A stretch of 64,000 nt of DNA from Polyangiales bacterium (lineage in GTDB: Bacteria; Myxococcota_A; Polyangia; Polyangiales; Ga0077539): positions 1-64,000 of the forward strand of contig JBGARZ010000028.1 of NCBI GenBank assembly GCA_044229975.1, written 5' to 3'. The notes beneath the pieces were generated by a model that saw only the letters and a program-made list of their open reading frames with translations, ran no database searches and was not told the origin of the DNA. The translations under genes and the position numbers were made by a program. Shown here piece after piece: positions 52,017 through 64,000 of this stretch (within the stretch, counting starts at the first letter, position 1; each line of letters begins with the position of its first letter).

Positions 52017-53306
52017 ATGCAACGACAGTCGTCTGAGCGCGCCATCGTCCTCCTCGTGGCGATGGTGCAGTTCGTCAACATCCTCGACTTCATGATGGTG
52101 ATGCCGATGGGGCCCGATTTCGCGGCGGCCCTCGGCATCCCCATCTCGCGCCTCGGCCTCATCGGCGGCAGCTACACCTTCGCCGCGATGGTCTCCGGCC
52201 TCGCCGGGTCGCTCTTCCTCGACCGCTACGGCCGCCGCAACGCCCTCCTCGTCGCCATGCTCGGCCTCTCTGTCGGAACCGCCCTCGGCGGCTTCGCAAC
52301 CGGCTTCACCTCGCTGCTCGTCGCCCGCGTCCTCGCGGGTGCCTTCGGCGGTCCGGCCACCGCCGTGTCGCTCTCCATCATCGCCGACACCGTTCCGGCC
52401 GAGCGCCGCGGCAAGGCCATGGGGCTCGTGATGGGAGCGTTCTCCATGGCGTCGGTCTTCGGCGTCCCGTTGGGTCTTGAGCTCGCGCGCCGCGGCGGCT
52501 GGCGCCTGCCCTTCTTCGCCGTCGCGACGCTCGGGCTCGTCGCGTGCGCGGTCGCTTCGGCGCTGCTCCCACCGCTGCGCGGTCACCTGGAGCGAACGGT
52601 GTTCAAGGCCGACGGGCTCGCCGGTTCGTACCGCGAGTCGCCCGAGACCTCTGCCGCACCGGTCGCCCCGCCGACGACGTGGTCGCTGCTGCGGAAGCCC
52701 GCGGTGCAGCTCTCGTATCTGATGTCGGCGACGTCGATGATGGGCGGCTTCGTGCTCATCCCCAACATCTCGCCGTACCTCATCCGCAACCTGGGCTATC
52801 CCCGCGAGCACCTCGGGATGCTCTACCTCGTCGGGGGCCTGTGCTCCTTCGCGACGTTGCAGGTGGCGGGTCGCCTCGTCGACAAGCTGGGCGGGCTGAA
52901 GGTCGCGACGCCCGCGACGCTGCTCATCACCTGGGTGGTCTTCGAGGGCTTCGTGCGCGAGCGGCCGTGGATGCCCGTGATCGTGGTCTTCGTGCTGTGG
53001 ATGACCGCGATGGGCTTCCGCAACGTGGGGATGCAGACCACCACGTCGAAGGTGCCGTCACCCGTCGAGCGGGCGCGCTTCATGTCGCTCCAGAGCGCGG
53101 TGCAGCACGGGTCGTCGTCGCTGGGTGCGATGCTCTCGACGGTGCTGCTCACCGAGGGCGCCGACCACCGCATGGTGGGCATGCCGCGCGTGGCCATCGT
53201 GACGGTGGCGTTGTTCGCGGCGCTGCCGCTGTTGCTGGCCGCGTTGGAGCGGGTGGTGCGACGCGAGGCGCAAGCGACCGCGCCCGTCGCGCCGCTGGTC
53301 GCGTAG
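52017..53306 (+). CDS. MFS transporter
   Basis: DFMMVMP, DRYGRR motif A, ERRGKAMG; about 12 TMs; GAGGAG RBS. Confidence 0.93.
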   Translation: MQRQSSERAIVLLVAMVQFVNILDFMMVMPMGPDFAAALGIPISRLGLIGGSYTFAAMVSGLAGSLFLDRYGRRNALLVAMLGLSVGTALGGFATGFTSLLVARVLAGAFGGPATAVSLSIIADTVPAERRGKAMGLVMGAFSMASVFGVPLGLELARRGGWRLPFFAVATLGLVACAVASALLPPLRGHLERTVFKADGLAGSYRESPETSAAPVAPPTTWSLLRKPAVQLSYLMSATSMMGGFVLIPNISPYLIRNLGYPREHLGMLYLVGGLCSFATLQVAGRLVDKLGGLKVATPATLLITWVVFEGFVRERPWMPVIVVFVLWMTAMGFRNVGMQTTTSKVPSPVERARFMSLQSAVQHGSSSLGAMLSTVLLTEGADHRMVGMPRVAIVTVALFAALPLLLAALERVVRREAQATAPVAPLVA

Positions 53307-53621
53307 CCCGCCGAGCAAGCACCCGCCTACGCCCTCGGTGGACGTCCGAAGGGACGCGAGCGCTTGCGTCCGACGCAGGCATGCTCGCCAGACTCTCCGA
53401 GGCCGCGGCGACTCGGGAGGTAAGGCGAAGGACCGGCATCCAGTCATTTCAACCACTTGAAAGATTGTTGTCGAATGTTCTTGACTCGGTTGGAGGGGGG
53501 GGGCGTACAGGCCCAAGATCGAGGGTCAGAACTCTCTTCGTACATGACGATGGTCGGGGGCGGTGCCGGGGGCATGGCATCCCCATCGGTGTTGCCCAGT
53601 CGCCTTCGTGGGAGGTCGTGA

Positions 53622-54002
53622 ATGGCATTCAATCGATTCTTTGATGAAGAGATCGGACGCGCGGCGCAACTGAGCTGTGTCAACGACGGTGCCATCGCAG
53701 ACGCAAAAGCGTACGGTTTTGAACTGGACGATGAGGCCGAGGACTTCTCCGGCATCGCAGCCGGCATCTACGACGCGTTCCTCAAAGAGATGGACGCGGG
53801 GAAGACGGTGCTCTTCCGGGTTCGGAGGGTTGCCGACGGAGAGGAACATCTGGTGACACCGACCGATACTCCGATCGTGCTTTCGATGTTTCCGGGCAGC
53901 GTCGTCGCGAGGATTCGATTCATGCCCGGCAAAAAGGTGCTGACCGCGCGGCTGCTCTCGGGCACTGGCACTCTCTATCTTGTCCCAATCGTCCCATTGT
54001 GA
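53622..54002 (+). CDS. Hypothetical protein (126 aa), first gene of the atypical locus
   Basis: GGAGG RBS before ATG; protein-like composition; same strand as the rest of the locus. Confidence 0.65.
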   Translation: MAFNRFFDEEIGRAAQLSCVNDGAIADAKAYGFELDDEAEDFSGIAAGIYDAFLKEMDAGKTVLFRVRRVADGEEHLVTPTDTPIVLSMFPGSVVARIRFMPGKKVLTARLLSGTGTLYLVPIVPL

Positions 54003-54041
54003 ATCCAAGGCTGAGGGGCAACTGCGCACCGGAGCACAAAT

Positions 54042-54404
54042 ATGGCCACTAGCATCATTCGGGTCACCAAGGGCATCCAGCGCGTAACGTCAGACGGGCT
54101 GGTTGGCATCGATCAGGCGGTCGATGTGACGGGCTATCATACGGCCCGGCTGGCCTTGAAGATTATCGGAGTCGAAAACGCTGACTCGCCTCATCTCGTG
54201 GTCGCCATTCAGACCTCGATGACGCTGGATGACCCAGACAACGCTCCTCTCCTCGGTGGCTTCGTATTCTCCGAAGAGAAGGGGCTCGTGATGGTGCAGA
54301 CCTTCCCCGGCCTGCTCCGTTATTTGTGGTTCAACGCGTCAGAGTTCGAGGGAGAGGGCGCCGACGCCTTCTCTTTCAGCCTCGAAGGGCTCGTCTACGA
54401 CTGA
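54042..54404 (+). CDS. Small beta-rich protein, paralog A
   Basis: GGAG RBS; motifs IQTSM..DD and GLLRYLWF, C-terminal FSLEG, shared with the next two ORFs. Confidence 0.8.
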   Translation: MATSIIRVTKGIQRVTSDGLVGIDQAVDVTGYHTARLALKIIGVENADSPHLVVAIQTSMTLDDPDNAPLLGGFVFSEEKGLVMVQTFPGLLRYLWFNASEFEGEGADAFSFSLEGLVYD

Positions 54405-54488
54405 CCGGCCGGCGACATCGGATTCCCCCAATGCCGACGGTCTCGAAGGCGTCGGCCCAACGTCAACAGAAAGCGAAGGAGCAAGACC

Positions 54489-54851
54489 ATGGCTGGACAA
54501 CCCATCAACATCACCCGCGGTTCGACCACCCTTTCGGCGACAGCGTCGCAGTCCGCCAAAGAGGCCATCGACCTTCAGGGCACTAGCGGGCTCCGCTTCG
54601 ACTTCGCCCTACGGGGTTACTTCATCAGCGGTTCGGGGGCGAGTGTCACGGTGAAGGTGCAGACCTCGATGTTCAACGATGACAATCCCGGAAATTGGGT
54701 TGACCTGGCGACCTTTGGCGCGGTGACAGGCTCCAACGTCACGGAGGTCAGCAGCGTTGACTCCGGGGTGCTGCGGTACCTCCGCTACGTCGCCACGCTC
54801 AATGCCAACACCACGAGCTTCACCTTCGAAGTTCAGGGCATGGCCTGGTAG
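54489..54851 (+). CDS. Small beta-rich protein, paralog B (capsid-cement/jelly-roll-like)
   Basis: AAGGAG RBS; AIDL, VTVKVQTSM..DD..WVDLATF, GVLRYLRY, FEVQG. Confidence 0.82.
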   Translation: MAGQPINITRGSTTLSATASQSAKEAIDLQGTSGLRFDFALRGYFISGSGASVTVKVQTSMFNDDNPGNWVDLATFGAVTGSNVTEVSSVDSGVLRYLRYVATLNANTTSFTFEVQGMAW

Positions 54852-54857
54852 GCTGTC

Positions 54858-55205
54858 ATGGAGGCCGTCATCCGCTTCACGGAGAAGCCGCAGTGGGTGA
54901 CGGCCACGGGGCCGTCGTCCTCGTGGGACGTGATGAGCTTCGTGAACTTCCGCGGGCTCGAGCTGTCGCTGCGGCTCGTCGGGTTTGAAGGCGCGAGCGA
55001 TCCGGTGCTACAGGTCGCCATGGAGACCGGGATGAGGTTCGACGAAGACTTCGCGCCGCTCGGGCGCTTTCTCCCGCTGGTGATGCCGGGGGAGGTCTGC
55101 ACCCGTCGCTTCGAGGGCCTGCTCCGCTTCGCCCGTTGGAACGTGGTGCAGCTCGCTGGAGCGACCGCGGCGTGCTTCGTCCTCGAAGGCAAGGCGCTGC
55201 CCTGA
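54858..55205 (+). CDS. Small beta-rich protein, paralog C
   Basis: METGM..DE, LGRF, GLLRFARW, FVLEG; colinear with A and B. Confidence 0.8.
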   Translation: MEAVIRFTEKPQWVTATGPSSSWDVMSFVNFRGLELSLRLVGFEGASDPVLQVAMETGMRFDEDFAPLGRFLPLVMPGEVCTRRFEGLLRFARWNVVQLAGATAACFVLEGKALP

Positions 55206-55230
55206 CGGGCTGGTCGCAGGGAGGTCGTCG

Positions 55231-57321
55231 ATGTCGCTGTTCGATTCCATCAACAAGGTCATCGATGTCACCGCCCATGGGGTGAGGCCCGGCGCGCCGG
55301 GAGAAGCGCTCGTCGACAACACCGCGGCCTTCAACACCATCATCAACCGAGGCGGTAGCGACGGACTTCGGGTGAATACGGCGGGCTTCAGCCCTCCGTT
55401 TGTGGCGCCCCAGTACCGGGGTACGCTCTACCTGCCTCCCGGACGTTACCTGTTCCGAACGGACCCCGCCATAACGCTAAATTGGCTGATCAACTTCGCC
55501 AATGAGGTTGGCGTCAACGGCACGTTCAGGCAGGAGATGCAAGACGCGCAGCAAGCTCGGCTTGCGCGGCCGTTTGGGGATTCGGTGCGCTTCCCGGAGG
55601 GCACGACTTTGTGGCTGGCACCTGGCGCGGTCCTGGTCCCCGAGCGTGGCTGTGTCGTCGATATATCTTCGTTGCTCATCTGTGGAGATGAAGGCTGCTT
55701 TGATCTCTCGCTCGGTGGCCTAGTCGTGTTCGGTCGAGCCGTGCCCGTTCTCCGTCCGGAGTGGTGGAGGGTATCTAGTCCAGCTCGGAGCGGCGTTGAG
55801 GACGTCGGTGACTCTGCGGTCATTCAATACGCGATCGACGCCGCAATCCACAATCGATCAATTGTCTACCCTTTCGTGTATCCGCAGTACGTCGTGGCTG
55901 GTGGGCAAAACGTTCTATCCCGCTGGTATCGGGGCGAAAAGAGCATTCGGCGACCATCGTTGGTCGTCGAGTTTCGTGGCGAGTACACGTTGCAGCAGAC
56001 CGTCAACGTTCGCGCTGACGCCCTTCACAATGGGATCTGGTTGCAGCGTAGGACGCCAGGTAACACTTCCGACTCCCTGCCGAGCGGCGCGACCAGCTTC
56101 ACGCGAGACGGTATCGCTAGTTCCGAGGCCGCGACCGTGCTCCGCGGCGTGTGGAACGGAGGCCGCTTTCGTGGGGCGACCTTGAACGCGGGCAAGCGAT
56201 TGGGCGAAAATCCCCTGTTGCGGCTGACCTTCTGTCAAGGCATGACGGTCGAGAACCTCACCTTTGTGTGTCCATCGGGCGGCTATCAGCCCGGCATCGA
56301 GTTCCGAGCGTCGTCGGTCGAGGAGTTTGGTGGAGCTTTCCTGGCAGCAGCGCAGGACATCGCGGTTCGACAGTGTCGCTTTGACGGTACTGCCCAACCG
56401 ATGGTGCAAGTCGGCGCTCGAACCGAGCTGTTCACTGGACGACCTCGCCTGACTGAACTCCCGTACGCGATAGGCCGCAACGATGCCGGCACGGACCTCT
56501 CCCTGCTGTCTTTCGAGGACTGCGAGTTCGTGCTCTTCGACCGTGCGATCGGCATCGATGTGAGGGCCAACCAGTCTTTCGCGATGCGATATACGCGCTG
56601 CGATTTCAAGGGAGGCGCGGCGGCGATGCTGTCACTGTGGGGAGGCTCGCACTACCTGCATGGCTGCCGCTTCTTCAACAACTGGCGGGTGCCATCCAGT
56701 ACGCCCCTGCCGAGCAACCCTACGGATAGCCGCGGGTTCGAACTCCCCGACTCGTCAGACTTGTTCCTGCGAGCGGAGCTTCCGATGTTGGTCCCCGCAG
56801 CGGTGGCCGCCCCTCGCGGGGCACTCGCGGCCTACACTCGCCTGGCGTTATCGAGCCCAGGTGGTCAGGCCGTCGTCGTGACGAATCAAGACTTCCTCCC
56901 GAGCGTCCTGACCCTCGGGTGCGTGTCAGACAGCGTTCAGTTTCTCTCCACGGTTGCACCGGGCCCCCTTGTCTCTGCTCAGAATGCTGACTGGCCTGTG
57001 GTGCTGGTGGGCACCCGTCATCGGGCGCCTTCGGGCTCGGTTGCTCCTTCCGTGCGCTGGGGGCTCATCAACACCGCGAGGGTGGCGACTCGGGGACCCG
57101 ACTCGAGGCGCGACATGAAGCGCGGGGGGCCGTTGGCCATCGTGGGAGGGTTCTATTCGGGCGGAATGTTCGTCCTTCGAGCGGCATGCCAGAGCGCGGT
57201 CGTGGGCGCGAGGATGGGAGTCACCCCAGGCGTCTGGATGGAGGGTGGAGCCAATCCTGTCGGTAGCTGGCCGGCGACGACGGTCTTCGGTCTCCGTGCG
57301 GATCAGGGGAGACCCCTGTAA
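55231..57321 (+). CDS. Tailspike/pectate-lyase-3-like (probable beta-helix) protein, paralog 1
   Basis: GGAGG RBS; IDVTAHG..DNTAAF..LYLPPGRY, RPEWW..DSAVIQYAIDAA, repeated (D/Q)C.F units; no signal peptide evident. Confidence 0.75.
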   Translation: MSLFDSINKVIDVTAHGVRPGAPGEALVDNTAAFNTIINRGGSDGLRVNTAGFSPPFVAPQYRGTLYLPPGRYLFRTDPAITLNWLINFANEVGVNGTFRQEMQDAQQARLARPFGDSVRFPEGTTLWLAPGAVLVPERGCVVDISSLLICGDEGCFDLSLGGLVVFGRAVPVLRPEWWRVSSPARSGVEDVGDSAVIQYAIDAAIHNRSIVYPFVYPQYVVAGGQNVLSRWYRGEKSIRRPSLVVEFRGEYTLQQTVNVRADALHNGIWLQRRTPGNTSDSLPSGATSFTRDGIASSEAATVLRGVWNGGRFRGATLNAGKRLGENPLLRLTFCQGMTVENLTFVCPSGGYQPGIEFRASSVEEFGGAFLAAAQDIAVRQCRFDGTAQPMVQVGARTELFTGRPRLTELPYAIGRNDAGTDLSLLSFEDCEFVLFDRAIGIDVRANQSFAMRYTRCDFKGGAAAMLSLWGGSHYLHGCRFFNNWRVPSSTPLPSNPTDSRGFELPDSSDLFLRAELPMLVPAAVAAPRGALAAYTRLALSSPGGQAVVVTNQDFLPSVLTLGCVSDSVQFLSTVAPGPLVSAQNADWPVVLVGTRHRAPSGSVAPSVRWGLINTARVATRGPDSRRDMKRGGPLAIVGGFYSGGMFVLRAACQSAVVGARMGVTPGVWMEGGANPVGSWPATTVFGLRADQGRPL

Positions 57322-57329
57322 GCCGATCG

Positions 57330-59291
57330 ATGCGCGAAGAGAGGTGTCGAGTGGTCAAGCGATCCGGCGGGCGGCGATGGTGTGCTTTGGGTGCGACTCT
57401 GCTCTTTGCCGGGTGCTCGAAAGAGGCGGCGAGCCATGTGGCGCACGACGCGTCTGTCGATCGGTCAGCCGTTGCCGTGGACGTTTCGGACATCGCCGGG
57501 GACGTCTCGGACATCGGCGAGGACGTTGCCTCGTCGCCGGACGCTGGAATCGATGTGGTGACGCCCCGTGACGACGGACGCCGTGATGTTGTCGTGGTTC
57601 GCGACGCTGGGTCTCGCGACGCCGGCGCTATCGTCCCAGTGGACCTCGGGCCGGCGCTGGAGGTTCCCCTCGATCCGATGGGTGTTCCGGCACCGGGAAG
57701 TGAATGCACCGGAGATGCGGGCGTGCGACCGGGCGACCCCAGCATCGCGCCACCGCGACCTATCCTGCCGCAGTCGGTGTCGCGAGTCACCTCGCAGAGG
57801 CCGTCGTTTCGCTGGGTGCTGCCTGAGGGGACAACGGGCGCGCGAGTCGAGGTCTGCGCCGACCGATGCTGCGTACGGGTGATCCAGACGCTGGAGGCCG
57901 AAGGGACGACGGTGCGGCCAACAACAGCGCTGCCGCCGGGGGTGGTGTATTGGCGGATGTTCGGCCGCCGGGCGGGGATGACGGGGTCGCGGGCGTCCTA
58001 CACATGGGAGTTCGAGGTGCGGCGAAGGGACACGCCCGTCGACTCCAGTTGGGGGACGATTCGGGACTTCACGGGGGACGGGTATGACGATCTGTTGATG
58101 CGGGCTGATGATTACAATTCCGACGGGACACGATCACTATACGTTGTAGAAGGAGCGCTGGGCGGGCCGAGGCCGCCGCGTTTGATTGCTCAGTTGAACG
58201 TCGTCCCATACCTCGGTCGGGCGAAGGTGGGCGATTTCAATGGCGATGGTCGCGCAGACATCGCCTATTATTCAAGTGACAGTGAGCATAGCGTAGTTGG
58301 AGTCGTCCAAAGTGAGGCGGCTGGATCACACCGCGCCTTCTCGATTGGATTCCCTCGTGCGGAGCAAATTGGGATGAGCGGACCGACAATAGTGGACTGG
58401 GACGGTGATGGATACTCAGATCTTGTGGCCACAGCCTATAGTCGGCCAGTGGACGACTTCTGGGGATCTCTGTTGCTGATCTATCGGGGATCGCCGAGCG
58501 GGCTTTCTGCCCGTCCGCAGTCGATCGCCCGAATGTCGACACGTCTAGGTCCGTTGATCTATATCCACGGATCTGTTAGCGACGTTGATAGTGATGGTTA
58601 TGGCGACATCATGATTGCGTATCTGGCGGGTAACGGACGACACCTTGGTTATTCGCTGGTGTTTGGCGGCGAGCAGGCGGCGGTTCGTTCTGAACCCCTC
58701 TGGTCGACGGCGGTCCCCGATGGATTAAGCGATGGCCAGGCGCTGTTGCAGTGTGTCGCGGATGTGGACGGCGATGGCCAGGGAGATCAAGTTGTATCGC
58801 TTTTGGGATCGCCCGGATTCTACCTCTTTCGACATGCATCGGGGTTCGACGTGCCATCTTCGTTCATGTTGGCACCGCCAACCGCCGGAGGAGCAGATTT
58901 CGGATTCATCGTAGAGCCGACCGACCTGAACGGTGATGGTTTCGCCGACCTACTCGTGAGGTCGTCCAGCAGCGCGACCGAAACCTGGGGAATGACTGGT
59001 TTCCCGTTCAACGCCGGACGCATGTACGTCTACTTTGGCGCACGAGATGGCGTGTTCGCTGATCCAATCTGGTTTGACCGGATGCGACCGACGGATCCTG
59101 CCGACAACCCGCGTGCCTTCGCCGCGACGGTGCTGTCTCCGGGGGACCTCAATGGAGATGGCTTCGACGACGCGGCGATAGGTGATCTCTCGCGACGCGC
59201 GTGTTGTTACGTGATGGGAAGCACCAGTCCGGTGGGGTCGCATCTTGGCGGATGTCTCGCGATTCCTGGACACGGCTTGGATCTCTACTGA
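57330..59291 (+). CDS. FG-GAP/VCBS repeat lipoprotein
   Basis: FAGC lipobox, D/A-rich linker, about seven D.[NDT]GDG..D repeats. Confidence 0.88.
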   Translation: MREERCRVVKRSGGRRWCALGATLLFAGCSKEAASHVAHDASVDRSAVAVDVSDIAGDVSDIGEDVASSPDAGIDVVTPRDDGRRDVVVVRDAGSRDAGAIVPVDLGPALEVPLDPMGVPAPGSECTGDAGVRPGDPSIAPPRPILPQSVSRVTSQRPSFRWVLPEGTTGARVEVCADRCCVRVIQTLEAEGTTVRPTTALPPGVVYWRMFGRRAGMTGSRASYTWEFEVRRRDTPVDSSWGTIRDFTGDGYDDLLMRADDYNSDGTRSLYVVEGALGGPRPPRLIAQLNVVPYLGRAKVGDFNGDGRADIAYYSSDSEHSVVGVVQSEAAGSHRAFSIGFPRAEQIGMSGPTIVDWDGDGYSDLVATAYSRPVDDFWGSLLLIYRGSPSGLSARPQSIARMSTRLGPLIYIHGSVSDVDSDGYGDIMIAYLAGNGRHLGYSLVFGGEQAAVRSEPLWSTAVPDGLSDGQALLQCVADVDGDGQGDQVVSLLGSPGFYLFRHASGFDVPSSFMLAPPTAGGADFGFIVEPTDLNGDGFADLLVRSSSSATETWGMTGFPFNAGRMYVYFGARDGVFADPIWFDRMRPTDPADNPRAFAATVLSPGDLNGDGFDDAAIGDLSRRACCYVMGSTSPVGSHLGGCLAIPGHGLDLY

Positions 59292-59300
59292 GAGGTTAAG

Positions 59301-61228
59301 ATGTCGGACGACTACGGATCAGAACTACGCAACGTTCTCAACGGTATTCTGCCTGATCAACGACCTCTGGCGGCCGACGTCACCTCCTACGGACCTTCCA
59401 TATCGAGCGTGTTCAGGTCTCTCGCTCGCATCGTCTCGGATCCGGTGGGTGGCACCACTGGCACGCCACCTCAGATTCTATATTTTCCGCCTGGGCGCTA
59501 TGTACTAAACCGTAGCCCCGAACTTAACGCGGAGACATTTACGGTTCCCAAGGAGTCGAACTCTTCTTTGCCAATGACGCCATTCTCCGCGTCGGCCCGG
59601 GCGTTACGCTGGTGATCGCCGGGACGATCCGCGCAGGTCAGCAACAGATCTTCGGCTTCAATCGCTTCGAGATATCAGGCCGTTTCGATCGCGAAGGCCG
59701 TTTCGATCCGGCGGGCAGCAACCTTCGACTCGGCGTGTCGTTCCCCATCCCGAACGGCATGGTACCGGGTGTACCTGCGACGGTCACCTGGCCGGTCGGG
59801 GTAGTCGATGAGTCCGGGCGCCGGGTACCCTGTGGACGAGTCGTGATCTCCAGCGACGACGTTCCGCTGGTCCGTCCCGAGTGGTGGGGCGCCCGTGCTT
59901 GGGATGTGTCAGAGATCCAGGCGGCGACCACACCGCCTGCGGGCCACGACTCCTGGGATGCCTTTCAGGGTGCGATCGACGCGGCCTGCATCGGACGTGC
60001 GGTGCGAGGTCGGCCCCCGATCCCCATCGCATTGACGGGGCTGTACCAGATCGTCCGCGCGTTGGAGATCCGTCCGCCGACGGGCCCGAGTGGGGCCTTG
60101 ATTCCCACTTGTCTGGTGTGGCGTGGGACTGCGGGTTTGCGTAGTCGGCTGGCCACTGTGGCACGCAATCCTTTGGCGGCACGCACCAAACGTGGGCAAC
60201 CCGCCGAGGTCCTCTTGCGGTTGCATCCAGGGGTTGACTTCGATCTTCGGGACGTCAGCCTCAGCACCGACTTGAACATCGATGGTGTGATCGAGGTCGT
60301 CTGCGACGATAGCGAAGCTTCGGGACGACGGGGCCTCCTGAAAAGAGTCACTCTCACCGGAACCGCAGCACAGTTTCTGTTGCGAATCGTCGAGACGGGT
60401 AACTCGACCGCGCGTCGTCAGTTTGTTGTTGACAGTTGTGCCTTGGTGCAGATTCCCAATCTTCCATGTCGCCACGACGTGCAACTCGACACCGGCCCCG
60501 GGGTCATGCTTCGAGTCAGCAACACGCTGATGGGACCGCCTACGCAACCGAACGAAGTTCTGCAGTTGACTCCCGAGGCCATCGGCCACGCGACCTGCCA
60601 TCTGACAGGAGGAGCCGCGCTGTTGGATTCGCTGTTGTTCCACCAGGCGCTAGGGCCGCGTCCGTCGCGCGATCCCCCGCTGCTCGACGAGCCCGATGGT
60701 CAAGACATCTTCCTCGGAGCCCCGAGCAAGGGTAGTGGCCGTCCGGCGACTCAACTGACGGTCATGATGTGTGAGTCGCAGGGCTTCTGGCTGCTTGGAC
60801 GCGATTCTAACGTGACCCGGGCTCATCAAGCGGTGTTGCTCGGTGTGGCTCACTACCTGTCCGTTGATGCGAGGAACGATCTCCGTTGGACTGAATGGAC
60901 CAGGCAGCCGCCGCCAACGGAGGCGCAAGCGTCGTCGCGCATGGTCCCGAGCGTGGTCTGGCGAGGGGCGGTCGGACAGTGCGTAATGATCGGATGTCGG
61001 CTGGGGATGTCGATGGTGCTAAGTGAAGCCGATACCATCGTGAACGTGGCGACGACCTTCAACAACCTGGATGTAGGGGATAGCCGCAAGTTGTACCTGC
61101 GTGAAGAGCACATGGTTCGGAGGGGGACTGGATACACGCACCCCGACCTCGCGATGGCATCCAACACCTTCGACGGTGCCGTGCGGCACCTGGTGCCTAT
61201 CCTCGAAGACGGCAGGATGGTGCGATGA
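59301..61228 (+). pseudogene. Tailspike-like paralog 2, split by a 1-nt frameshift near 59550 (or a sequencing error)
   Basis: ORF 59301 (LYFPPGRY..FTVP) continues in the -1 frame from 59552 (GVELFFANDAILRVGPGVTLVIAG..RPEWWGA..DAFQGAIDAA), which matches paralogs 1 and 3. Confidence 0.75.
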
Positions 61229-62751
61229 CACTCGGGGCATTTTTCAGTCCCTTCGGCGACAGCGTCGGGAGTGAGTCTGGGTTTGAGGACAGCATCCGTC
61301 TGCGGGATACGTTGAGCTTCATGACAAGCGAGGCGAGCCGCAATGCCCCACTGATTCTGTGGGTCTCGCGCTCCGCCCGTCTCTTGATGCCTATCGACTT
61401 CACGATTCCGAGCGATGTGACCATGGCGTTCGCCCCCGGCGCCGTGCTCACCGTTGGCGAGGGTGCCACGCTCGACATCGCGGGGCGCCTCGACATCGGT
61501 CCGGGCCGTCACTTTCAACGTAACGGAGGGCGGATCGTCCTGCGCGGACCCCTCGATGAGATCGACGCCTCATGGTGGGCGGACGAGCGTTCGAGGGGCA
61601 CGTCAGTTGTCGAGGCGCTTGACGTCCTGTGGGACCGCTATGAGCGCAGCTTGCCCCAGGCGCCGATCGTTCTTACCGGGCCCTACTGGTTGGAAGAGAC
61701 GCTCCGAGTGGTCCCTCCCGAGTCGCTGGTTCCGGCATCCGGTCTTCCCTTCGACGTGGTGATGCGAGGTCGGCACTATGGTCGGAGTAGCCCGACGACC
61801 TTTGGGGTGAGCGCATCCAAGTCGGTCGGTGCCCTCGATGCGCTGGTCGCGGTGGACGGCACGGTGGTGCTCACGCTGGAGAACATCGGTTTCGATCTCG
61901 CTCGTCCGGAGGGCTTCCCGGCGGTGCGTGCAGCGCTGCTGCTCACGGGCGCATACGACCGCAGCCGCATCGAAGCGTGTACCTTCCGGCTGGCTGGAGG
62001 CACGGGCGTTCATGTGACGACGCTCTGGGACGTGTGGCGTCAGGTCACGGGCGAGGTGCCCAACAGCTTCACGGGCCTGGAAATCGCTTTCGCTCTCCCC
62101 GTGCTCGAGGCGAGAGCGACCCGGCAGGCCAGTAGGCTCGTCATCGCGGGCTGCGATTTTGAGGGCGGCGATGGGGCCAGCGTCGGCGTACGAGTCGATC
62201 TCGTGGCTCCGACCATGCTCGACGTCTCGGACTGCCTGTTTCGCGGGGCATACCATCGCGGCATCTCCTTCCCTAGTGCTGACCTGATGGTGACCAACTG
62301 CGCCTTCGACAACACGACCACAGCGACGACGACCGAACCGTTGCCCGCGGTGGACATCTTCCTCGGTTCCCGAGAGCGCCTGCCGGATGGCTTTACCCGG
62401 TTGGCTGGAGCCAACGCTCAGTTCACCGCAACCCACTGTGTCTCTACCAGCCCGATCTTCCTTGTGGCGCAACGGGTGTTCCTCCCGGGCGACTCGGGTG
62501 GCGCAGTGCTTACCAACGTCCTTCACCAACCTCGCCTGAGGGCCAGTGACGCAGAGGCGACCTCTATCCAGTTGATGGGCGCGTACGAGAGTCGCAGCCT
62601 GGTGCTTCAGGGGTGTGAACTGGGTGGATCGGTGCGCTTCGTCAGCGTGTCGGCGATTGGAGTCGTGGTCGAACTCGGAACCCGCTTCGCTATCGGCGTC
62701 GTTCCTTACGTCGGCTTGGCCAATGCCATGGTGGGCCTCGAAGCTCCGTGA
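61225..62751 (+). CDS. Tailspike-like paralog 3
   Basis: FTIPSDVTMAFAPGAVL, IDASWW, GCDF/DCLF/NCAF repeats, DIFLG. ATGA overlap with the upstream gene. Confidence 0.75.
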   Translation: MTLGAFFSPFGDSVGSESGFEDSIRLRDTLSFMTSEASRNAPLILWVSRSARLLMPIDFTIPSDVTMAFAPGAVLTVGEGATLDIAGRLDIGPGRHFQRNGGRIVLRGPLDEIDASWWADERSRGTSVVEALDVLWDRYERSLPQAPIVLTGPYWLEETLRVVPPESLVPASGLPFDVVMRGRHYGRSSPTTFGVSASKSVGALDALVAVDGTVVLTLENIGFDLARPEGFPAVRAALLLTGAYDRSRIEACTFRLAGGTGVHVTTLWDVWRQVTGEVPNSFTGLEIAFALPVLEARATRQASRLVIAGCDFEGGDGASVGVRVDLVAPTMLDVSDCLFRGAYHRGISFPSADLMVTNCAFDNTTTATTTEPLPAVDIFLGSRERLPDGFTRLAGANAQFTATHCVSTSPIFLVAQRVFLPGDSGGAVLTNVLHQPRLRASDAEATSIQLMGAYESRSLVLQGCELGGSVRFVSVSAIGVVVELGTRFAIGVVPYVGLANAMVGLEAP

Positions 62752-62818
62752 CATCGCCCGGCGCCCCTCCGCTTCGCTCCGGGTGAGGGCGCACTGGGTG
62801 GACCTGAGCGGTCGCTTG

Positions 62819-64000
62819 TCAGCCTCGCGAAGCCCGACGCCGTCGCCGCACGCTCGCGACCACCGCCAGCGCCGCGACGCACAGCCCGCCCGGCACGCTT
62901 CCGCGCCCGCTCGTCGGCCCCGCGCTGCACCCGCCTTCGAGCGCGCCCGTCGTCTCGCTGACCTCGTCGCCCACGAGCCCGCCGTCCGTCTTCATCGGCG
63001 TCTCATCCCCCGCATCGGGCTCCTCGACCACCGTGCCCGCGTCGACTTCCTCACCCGCGTCCGCCGTCACCACCGGTACGTCCACCGCCGCCGGCGGAAC
63101 GTCCCTCGTCGGCGTCCCGGCGTCCGCGACCGGCGCCACCGCGCGCGGGCTCACCCGCACCTGGCAGCGCGCGTCGGTCTCCCCGCCAAACCACGTGACG
63201 CTCTCCTGCAACGGCCCGTAGGTCTCCGTCAGCGTCGTCGGGGTCGCCACGTCGGGGATGCCCAGCACGAAGGAGAACCGCCCCACCGCGCCCGGCGCCG
63301 TCGCGCGGTCGACGCCCGACGGGCGGTTGCGCGAGACCCAGTTCTTCTCGTCGAAGAAGGTGCCGTTGTGGTCGCGCGGGCCCGTGGTGCCCAGCCGCGT
63401 CGACGCGATGGCCCACGTCGCCGTCCCCGTGTTGCGGAACTCGAACCATGCCACCGGCCGCTCGCCCGACGTCGCAGTCGTGGGGCAGCTCGCGCCCACG
63501 AAGGTCGCCGCGTAGGCGGGCGTCGTCGGCGTCGGAGGCGCCACGCTGCCGTTGCCGCGGACGAGGTCGAGGTAGTGCGACCAGTTCCACCCGGCGCCGC
63601 CGTTGCCGGGGTCGGTGTGGCCGCCCGCGCCGCCGCAGTTGGTGGCGTTGGTCGCGCACGGCGCCCCGCTCCCGCTCCGCGGAACCTGGTAGTGCCCGAT
63701 GATGTGCGCCCGATCGATGGGGATGCCGTAGCGGTCGCAGATCGCCCTCGTGAGGCGCGCGCTCGCGACGTACATCGCCTCGGTGTACCAGCGGCCCGGG
63801 TCGGCTACGTAGCCCTCGTGCTCGATGCCGATGGAGCGCTGGTTGATGTTCCAGTTGCCGGCGTGCCACGCGGTGTTGGAGTGCGCGACCATCTGCGTGA
63901 TCTCGCCGTCCGACGAGCGGATGTTGTAGTGCGCCGACGCTCCCGCCGCGGGGTTCTGAAACCACGACGTGCTGCCCGAGTAGGAGCCCTGCATCGTGTG
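62819..64000 (-). CDS. N-acetylmuramoyl-L-alanine amidase (Amidase_2) + Ig-like domain + MYXO-CTERM-like anchor; 5' end outside window
   Basis: HT at window edge, ASAHY, AWHAG, SIGIEHEG, IIGH, HTDPG; C-terminal GGCS-TM-RRRRR. Confidence 0.9.
   Translation of the reverse strand, partial: HTMQGSYSGSTSWFQNPAAGASAHYNIRSSDGEITQMVAHSNTAWHAGNWNINQRSIGIEHEGYVADPGRWYTEAMYVASARLTRAICDRYGIPIDRAHIIGHYQVPRSGSGAPCATNATNCGGAGGHTDPGNGGAGWNWSHYLDLVRGNGSVAPPTPTTPAYAATFVGASCPTTATSGERPVAWFEFRNTGTATWAIASTRLGTTGPRDHNGTFFDEKNWVSRNRPSGVDRATAPGAVGRFSFVLGIPDVATPTTLTETYGPLQESVTWFGGETDARCQVRVSPRAVAPVADAGTPTRDVPPAAVDVPVVTADAGEEVDAGTVVEEPDAGDETPMKTDGGLVGDEVSETTGALEGGCSAGPTSGRGSVPGGLCVAALAVVASVRRRRRASRG

Follow-up and report, generated by a model that had tools for sequence, protein, structure and literature searches.

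Gene content and base composition of the insert

The window analysed here is the whole stretch of 64,000 nucleotides at positions 1 to 64,000 of contig JBGARZ010000028.1, taken from a Polyangiales genome referred to as G000 (10.0 Mb, 93% complete), and the subject of this study is a cassette of eight genes which lie in one direction between positions 53622 and 62751 in the order H, A, B, C, L1, FG-GAP, L2 and L3. Genes A, B and C encode small proteins and L1, L2 and L3 large ones. The features of the locus, with lengths in amino acids (aa) and open reading frames given as ORFs, are:

53307..62818, no strand assigned: whole insert, 9,512 bp, low GC, between converging MFS and amidase genes
53622..54002, + strand: H, 126 aa, matches no family, optional cassette member
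54042..54404, + strand: A, 120 aa, jelly-roll paralog, C-type by tree, profile E-value 4.7e-28
54489..54851, + strand: B, 120 aa, first-slot type, predicted capsid cement/decoration fold
54858..55205, + strand: C, 115 aa, last-slot type by tree, profile E-value 1.9e-29
55231..57321, + strand: L1, 696 aa, beta-helix predicted to be right-handed and parallel (tailspike/polysaccharide-lyase fold), PF12708 E-value 0.002, no signal peptide seen
57330..59291, + strand: FG-GAP repeat lipoprotein, 653 aa, PF01839 E-value 2e-22
59301..61228, + strand: L2, beta-helix paralog in two ORFs, 59301-59615 (104 aa) and 59612-61228 (538 aa)
61225..62751, + strand: L3, 508 aa, last-position beta-helix type, PF13229 E-value 0.015, profile E-value 5e-101

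The cassette is an insertion between the MFS and amidase genes, because these two genes are adjacent in the congeners G001 and G008 and because one contig of run X3 joins position 53271 directly to position 62834. The GC content of the insert was 0.628 in comparison to 0.713 ± 0.017 genome-wide in 9.5-kb windows, of which 1 in 1,038 was as low, and the GC content at third codon positions was 0.61 to 0.90 for the cassette genes in comparison to 0.94 for three flanking genes, in agreement with a preliminary description of this DNA that had noted a locus richer in A/T than its flanks. The same description had listed eight co-oriented genes, which are borne out except that L2 is frameshifted into two ORFs instead of being a single one. 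It had also reported the locus to be free of integrase, terminase, capsid, sheath and tube genes, and indeed none of these was found among the window proteins with Pfam, PHROGs and NCBIfam, nor was a vgrG, PAAR or hcp gene found in the window with Pfam, or a major capsid gene adjacent to the cassette with Pfam and PHROGs. A repeat search detected no clear att site or terminal repeat at the insert ends, and a promoter and terminator scan of the cassette gave counts at chance level. Identical cassette pieces of 151 to 274 bases were present in four wastewater or activated-sludge runs from four studies. A short stretch near the insert's right end (62760-62800) may be a dispersed repeat, since it is matched by several contigs of run X3 that are otherwise unrelated and have loose ends.

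Predicted structures of the cassette proteins

The predicted model of B, which is the one model from which the fold of the small proteins is taken, is an eight-strand jelly roll (pLDDT 93), as the term jelly-roll-like in the preliminary description had anticipated; the likeness to capsid cement proteins, and the position of such genes ahead of other kinds of cargo described below, had escaped it. The best structural matches were the cement protein Bbp16 of phage BPP-1 (3j4u_H; VIA Z 11.1, root-mean-square deviation 3.0, 111 aligned residues, 22% identity) and the capsid decoration protein of Carin-1 (8cjz_B; VIA Z 10.2, deviation 2.8, 108 aligned residues, 21-22% identity), which are tied within 1 Z and stand by a modest margin above generic jelly rolls; next came PNGase F (Z 9.8), XepA (9.7) and YomS (8.9). 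At the sequence level, the small-family profile had a sole and weak match among PDB sequences, again 8cjz_B (E 0.71), while B matched phrog_9522 with an E-value of 2.5e-7. The ESM Atlas clusters matching B were 67-69% viral, and the best BFVD matches to its model were uncharacterised phage proteins with TM scores up to 0.79. Bbp16 is described as a dimer on the capsid two-folds (PMC3863775). The small proteins share with Bbp16 and the Carin-1 protein the eight-strand jelly roll and a length of about 120 aa, but differ in that no capsid gene lies at the locus or was found in the genome, that they occur as 1-4 divergent paralogs of two types, and that beta-helix and lipoprotein genes follow downstream. 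The likeness to XepA and YomS of Bacillus subtilis prophages lies in the jelly roll; XepA is described as exported and absent from mature particles (PMC6834076), and both genes sit in prophage lysis cassettes, whereas no holin or endolysin is annotated in this insert.

Pairwise identity among A, B and C was 26-35%, with 35% for A and C. In a tree of 69 of the 74 small-protein rows, a B type occupying the first slot separated loosely, with weak resolution, from a C type occupying the last slot, and A would be a duplicate of the C type. Both this tree and that of the large genes are quick trees with long branches. The six small and large paralogs had been described as being without signal peptides, and this held for nearly all proteins compared, as judged from hydropathy alone: a signal-like N-terminus (hydropathy reaching 2.0) was found in one of 35 small proteins and in none of 33 large ones.

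Gene H, which had no match in Pfam, PHROG, NCBIfam or PADLOC and no usable match in the ESM Atlas, has homologues at 9 other cassette loci (two in G002, two in G009, three in G021, and one each in G018 and G015). An apparent likeness of H to a prophage gene that lies between the capsid gene and the small gene was not upheld by the H profile.

The large ORFs had been expected to fold as beta-helices, and this is what was predicted, by a model for L1 and by profile homology for L2 and L3. The L1 model (pLDDT 69, pTM 0.78) is a right-handed beta-helix whose top five structural matches were tied at VIA Z 27-28 and included RbmB, CBA120 TSP2, AlgE4 and a protein from a Geobacillus phage, with residues 1-150 barely covered by the search. 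Overall the large proteins are about 24-30% identical over their aligned parts (L1 and L3, 30% over 449 residues; the second piece of L2 and L3, 28% over 418 residues). In comparison to tailspikes and beta-helix lyases (CBA120 TSP2, RbmB, AlgE4, WceF), the right-handed parallel beta-helix is shared, but identity is about 10%, no tail genes lie nearby, signal peptides are absent, and two to three diverged paralogs are found per locus. Tailspikes are usually trimers. In L2, three-frame translation placed the frame change near 59545-59555, with both pieces matching the family profile A3. The break may be a real lesion or an assembly error; no read covers the site, and in a weak check among other genes of G000, 0 of 23 matches were frameshift-like.

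The FG-GAP gene, correctly placed among the large genes as a lipoprotein gene in the preliminary description, encodes a lipobox-like LFAGC motif, and a similar motif is present in most other cassette copies. Export by Tat hitch-hiking, suggested by a GRRW motif in G000, was rejected, the RR before the lipobox not being conserved in other copies. G000 encodes about 20 further lipoproteins of this FG-GAP family, which share the Ig-like-plus-propeller layout and are not linked to small or beta-helix genes. In genus g2, the reading frame of L1 continues into that of the FG-GAP protein at four loci, three of them intact and one broken, and the fusions keep a hydrophobic helix and a lipobox between L1 and the propeller.

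Conservation of the cassette in related genomes

Of the 31 family genomes, 13 gave strong beta-helix matches, as many as 16 in a single genome, and a 14th had one weak match (E 6e-5). Small-protein matches were present in all 13 and, without the beta-helix proteins, in three further genomes. The preliminary description had asked about synteny, which proved to be conserved: a common gene order was observed at 27 beta-helix loci in 13 genomes at unrelated sites. At the 26 loci other than that of G000, the FG-GAP gene was found at 24 and a small gene at 22, and the misses are contig ends except at G011:C51. Twelve further beta-helix loci were mapped, mostly as contig-end fragments, and two of these, G025:C31 and G021:C37, have upstream DNA but no small gene. 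The three-plus-three arrangement from which a stoichiometry had been proposed did not recur, since it was seen in G000 alone among the 27 loci, the counts per locus being 0-4 small and 2-3 large genes. A 3+3 heterotrimer is not supported by these variable counts, and the trees give two small types and one last-position beta-helix type instead.

In the large-gene tree, built from 59 of 76 ORFs after fragments with fewer than 300 aligned columns were dropped, 19 of 21 last-position genes fell within one clade of 20 (SH-aLRT 94). The last-position label changed 4 times on the tree in comparison to a minimum of 11 in 1,000 shuffles, a difference inflated by the kinship of the loci. Both beta-helix types have nevertheless clearly been long maintained, and what is kept across loci is two small-protein types together with one last-position beta-helix type.

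The flanks of related loci differ and consist mainly of housekeeping genes, with one locus beside two insertion sequence transposases and one beside a gene of the PD-(D/E)XK transposase family. In genus g5, a 303-305-aa gene matching no Pfam family borders three cassettes (L044:5448-6362, L046:12014-12922 and L091:6303-7217). Among 401 genomes of the phylum, no full-length beta-helix match was found outside the family, and 7 other genomes match in the N-terminal part only.

These results bear on whether the cassette is a decaying phage remnant or moron whose genes have no joint function. Such an origin could explain the low GC content, the phage-like folds and the frameshifts, which affect L2 and also copies from G002, G011, G015, G018 and G021. 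It is at odds with one gene order at so many unrelated sites, with the slot-specific clades, and with the lack of phage core genes in the annotated flanks of related loci (64 flanking or cargo ORFs, Pfam). In addition, neither B nor an intact beta-helix protein matched any of 50,697 phage records, and two IMG/VR scans gave no relative. We therefore regard a remnant as very improbable, and a simple prophage remnant, which the preliminary description had named as the alternative, is not what was found at the locus or in the scanned flanks.

Proposed phage ancestry and the search for a resident particle

Seven prophages were examined, and in 5 of them a distant homologue of the small proteins lies two genes downstream of the major capsid gene; 3 of these 5 had been located through the small-protein profile itself, while by the capsid-profile route 2 of 4 prophages had the homologue. 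Prophages in which such homologues follow the capsid gene occur in the family and genus of the cassette (G001, G003, G014, G018), and this gene context suggests that the small jelly roll descends from a capsid cement protein. The major capsid proteins of the prophages (L098:5765-6913, L099, L102, L121-L123) contain an inserted stretch, at about profile positions 205-320, to which further genes within the respective prophages also show matches.

The cassette had been suggested, as one possibility, to decorate a particle encoded elsewhere in the genome, an idea which the searches of G000 do not support. No match was obtained to the contractile sheath PF04984 (control positive in 3 genomes), to PF05065, PF04860, PF03237, PF03354 or PF17289 (controls worked), to the encapsulin PF04454 (control worked), to the capsid profile A6 or to the capsid proteins of family prophages. 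The encapsulin PF19307, the T4 gp19-like tube PF06841 and phrog_247 also gave no match, with controls that were silent as well. Capsid, portal and terminase genes were not found in this 93%-complete genome, and no gene transfer agent (GTA) cluster or tailocin sheath gene was found in it. Of the systems that the preliminary description had proposed to look for, the sheath of an extracellular contractile injection system (eCIS) and a prophage capsid were thus not found, while a type VI secretion system (T6SS) is represented by the sheath gene VipB. As VipB was not found in the carriers G011 (93% complete, 14 beta-helix matches), G022 and G010, the T6SS is not required for the cassette.

A phage supplied from outside the locus could nevertheless be the partner. 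In this account the host encodes a capsid decoration, whose cement-like proteins would bind the heads of phages infecting or induced in this lineage and load beta-helix or enzyme cargo, so that lysis frees particles armed or tagged by the host. The lineage would have captured a cement gene as a general loading tag, and phage progeny would carry host effectors (beta-helix depolymerases at this locus, and at others lectins or M23 and PBP-fold enzymes) with the lipoprotein as anchor or protector, a scheme for which we see limited probability. The closest solved folds are indeed capsid cement and decoration proteins, homologues lie behind the capsid gene in prophages from the family and genus of the cassette, all members other than the lipoprotein are without signals, which suits the cytoplasm as the site of head assembly, and natural fusions join the jelly roll to fibre-tip and LamG domains. 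There is also the precedent that GTA spikes can be encoded away from the capsid cluster (10.64898/2026.07.19.739414). The account is weakened by the distance between cassette and prophage proteins (genome-level E 6e-7 to 3e-4, in a separate long-branch clade) and by the lipoprotein, which has no clear role in it. Nor are cassettes associated with that capsid type or with the PF17289 terminase: the full-length capsid type of the family prophages was present in 3 of 13 cassette genomes in comparison to 3 of 18 others, and the terminase in 5 of 13 in comparison to 7 of 18, the latter being a leaky test which missed the G018 prophage. Taken together, we consider host-encoded capsid decoration doubtful.

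The scattered spike genes of RcGTA (spike base Rcc01079 and TspA) are similar in being phage-derived decoration or tailspike genes apart from the capsid cluster, and TspA is reported to degrade biofilm and to detach (10.64898/2026.07.19.739414). The cassette differs in that no GTA-like capsid cluster was found in G000, that the small proteins do not match NF048002 spike_base, and that a lipoprotein is included.

Other cargo behind the jelly roll

The jelly-roll profile collected 663 clusters at 50% identity and had matches in 23 of 401 phylum genomes. G010, G017 and G022 have a run of three small genes ending in one that is fused to a LamG-like domain, and behind this run come a gene with weak likeness to DcrB and one for a TPR/M23 protein. 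A tandem array of six small genes is present in G163, its final member having a virion-lectin-like domain, and DUF4838-type proteins adjoin three cassettes. "LamG head spike" is a familiar label, as is DcrB as an effector chaperone. Outside the order, 20 loci were read by eye with uncertain start codons, and 8 of them, 4 from one genome, showed a small gene, a long ORF and a lipoprotein-like ORF in succession, with 2 more showing the small gene and the long ORF; the other 10 do not fit, and they include loci with glycosyltransferase genes next to them and one that borders a sheath gene. Cargo outside the order includes proteins of the beta-lactamase/penicillin-binding protein (PBP) fold and unnamed families. 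Among 25 longer database matches, several carry an N-terminal jelly roll fused to fibre-tip-like, hydrolase-like or Stig1 regions, and seven small-family proteins are fused to fibres (P0122-P0154). The gene context suggests that the jelly roll serves generally as the lead module, with interchangeable cargo behind it.

Such an arrangement could also be that of a polymorphic effector-immunity cassette, with the jelly roll as trafficking adaptor, the long gene as antibacterial or wall effector and the lipoprotein as periplasmic immunity. The 8 loci just described have the matching order on one strand, the cargo includes beta-lactamase/PBP-fold and M23 proteins, and a weak DcrB-like gene occurs at three family loci. 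At many beta-helix loci, however, the lipoprotein gene precedes both large genes, lipoproteins are fewer than large genes, genus g2 has L1 and the lipoprotein joined in one protein, and VipB was not found in the three carriers named above, and we judge this account unlikely.

Proposed role of the cassette

Bacteria are well known to have domesticated phage tails, as eCIS, tailocins and T6SS, and entire particles, as GTAs. The cassette lacks the features that define a prophage, a GTA, an eCIS, a T6SS cluster or a PADLOC system. A capsid cement protein without a capsid that leads cargo cassettes was not found described in the literature searched, which covered few subscription papers, or in four family libraries. 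The module is real, conserved and undescribed; what is new is its gene architecture, the folds being known ones and the function one that we infer.

For this module, whose order, insertion, recurrence and co-occurrence are observed and whose two folds are predicted, we favour, with a probability of about 35%, a domesticated cement-based carrier with a lipoprotein-anchored payload that binds or cuts glycans; cement ancestry and carrier role are inferred parts of it. The cement-like jelly rolls would serve as carrier or base for the signal-less beta-helix proteins, which may be released by a route other than Sec. Lysis or vesicles would be left by elimination, the sequences arguing against Sec and Tat and the T6SS not being required. 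Once released, the beta-helices would be kept on the cell surface by the FG-GAP lipoprotein of the same cassette, where they might bind or cut polysaccharide of prey or floc for attachment or digestion.

This reading is favoured by the two predicted folds, by the prophage homologues behind capsid genes, by the co-occurrence and the slot-specific clades, which suggest a maintained module, by other cargo that is likewise related to glycans or the wall (LamG, M23 peptidase, DUF4838, beta-lactamase/PBP fold), by the L1-FG-GAP fusions in genus g2, and by the fact that no resident particle to decorate was found. The MAT fibres of Bdellovibrio offer a precedent as phage-like adhesins of a predator; these are variable and all have a beta-rich domain that is conserved and measures about 130 aa (PMC10769870). 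They carry the signal peptide and this domain in one chain, whereas in the cassettes the jelly roll mostly has a gene of its own and no signals are seen by hydropathy. By analogy with MAT fibres and RcGTA TspA, the cassette would work like domesticated phage adhesins, while lacking their defining features.

Several results weigh against the favoured reading. No export route was identified for the signal-less proteins, and a Sec lipoprotein and signal-less proteins begin on opposite sides of the inner membrane. Since the g2 fusions keep the helix and lipobox, L1 would stay cytoplasmic in them. Because FG-GAP lipoproteins are abundant in these genomes, the adjacency of the FG-GAP gene is weaker evidence than it appears. 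Few acidic residues are kept across the beta-helix family (E177, D203, D510), so that catalysis is not evident. The frameshifts listed above count here as well, and no small gene was found despite upstream DNA at G011:C51, G025:C31 and G021:C37.

The cement fold may also be read as an anti-phage device, in which divergent proteins that imitate cement would poison the assembly or maturation of heads, as a head-side analogue of Tai. Tai blocks tails and sits in phage-inducible chromosomal islands, prophages and satellites (PMC11364771); it provides the concept that a host gene acts on how phage structures are assembled, while the cassette is without such a context or a PADLOC match. The cytoplasmic prediction, the patchy mobile distribution and paralog arrays of up to 6 would suit this role as well. 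In the 2023 PADLOC library, 0 of 8 window proteins matched, and the 3 of 28 neighbours that did are a generic ATPase, methyltransferase or HerA only; the flanks are mainly housekeeping genes, and the large cargo and the lipoprotein would be superfluous for such a job. Assembly interference is accordingly quite improbable.

The jelly roll could serve as a marker, across its 663 clusters, for many unannotated signal-less proteins acting on glycans or the wall, and the cassette offers a direct test of how signal-less proteins exit the cell. It also adds a new and diverse beta-helix family from wastewater-associated bacteria.

Further loci with small-family genes

Some additional arrangements were observed. 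At L050:5131-8855, L047:8750-12083 and L049:8247-11643, three small genes are followed by a weak DcrB-like gene, an 820-890-aa protein with TPR, hydrophobic and M23 regions, and a small Cys-rich lipoprotein-like gene, which together resemble an effector-immunity module without vgrG; the TPR/M23 protein has a conserved N-terminal CPxPHESHDKRVR motif. The DUF4838-type proteins at L097:16062 and L023:17446 start with MGFGPG, similar to the MGxFGP of many beta-helix paralogs, and a shared N-terminal tag is possible. At L097:14761-15565, two paralogs of 123-135 aa (53% identical) from another small family, possibly a second jelly-roll family, lie next to a cassette and upstream of a 1,113-aa DUF4838 protein. 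In G541, a small-family gene is divergent to the sheath and tube-like genes of an eCIS-like cluster (L165:4026-7830). Pairs or arrays of small genes lie beside glycosyltransferase genes (GT2-sulfotransferase, GT4) at L166, L169 (G529), L170 (G513) and L175, the last of which sits in an element with an integrase, a replication initiator and ParB.

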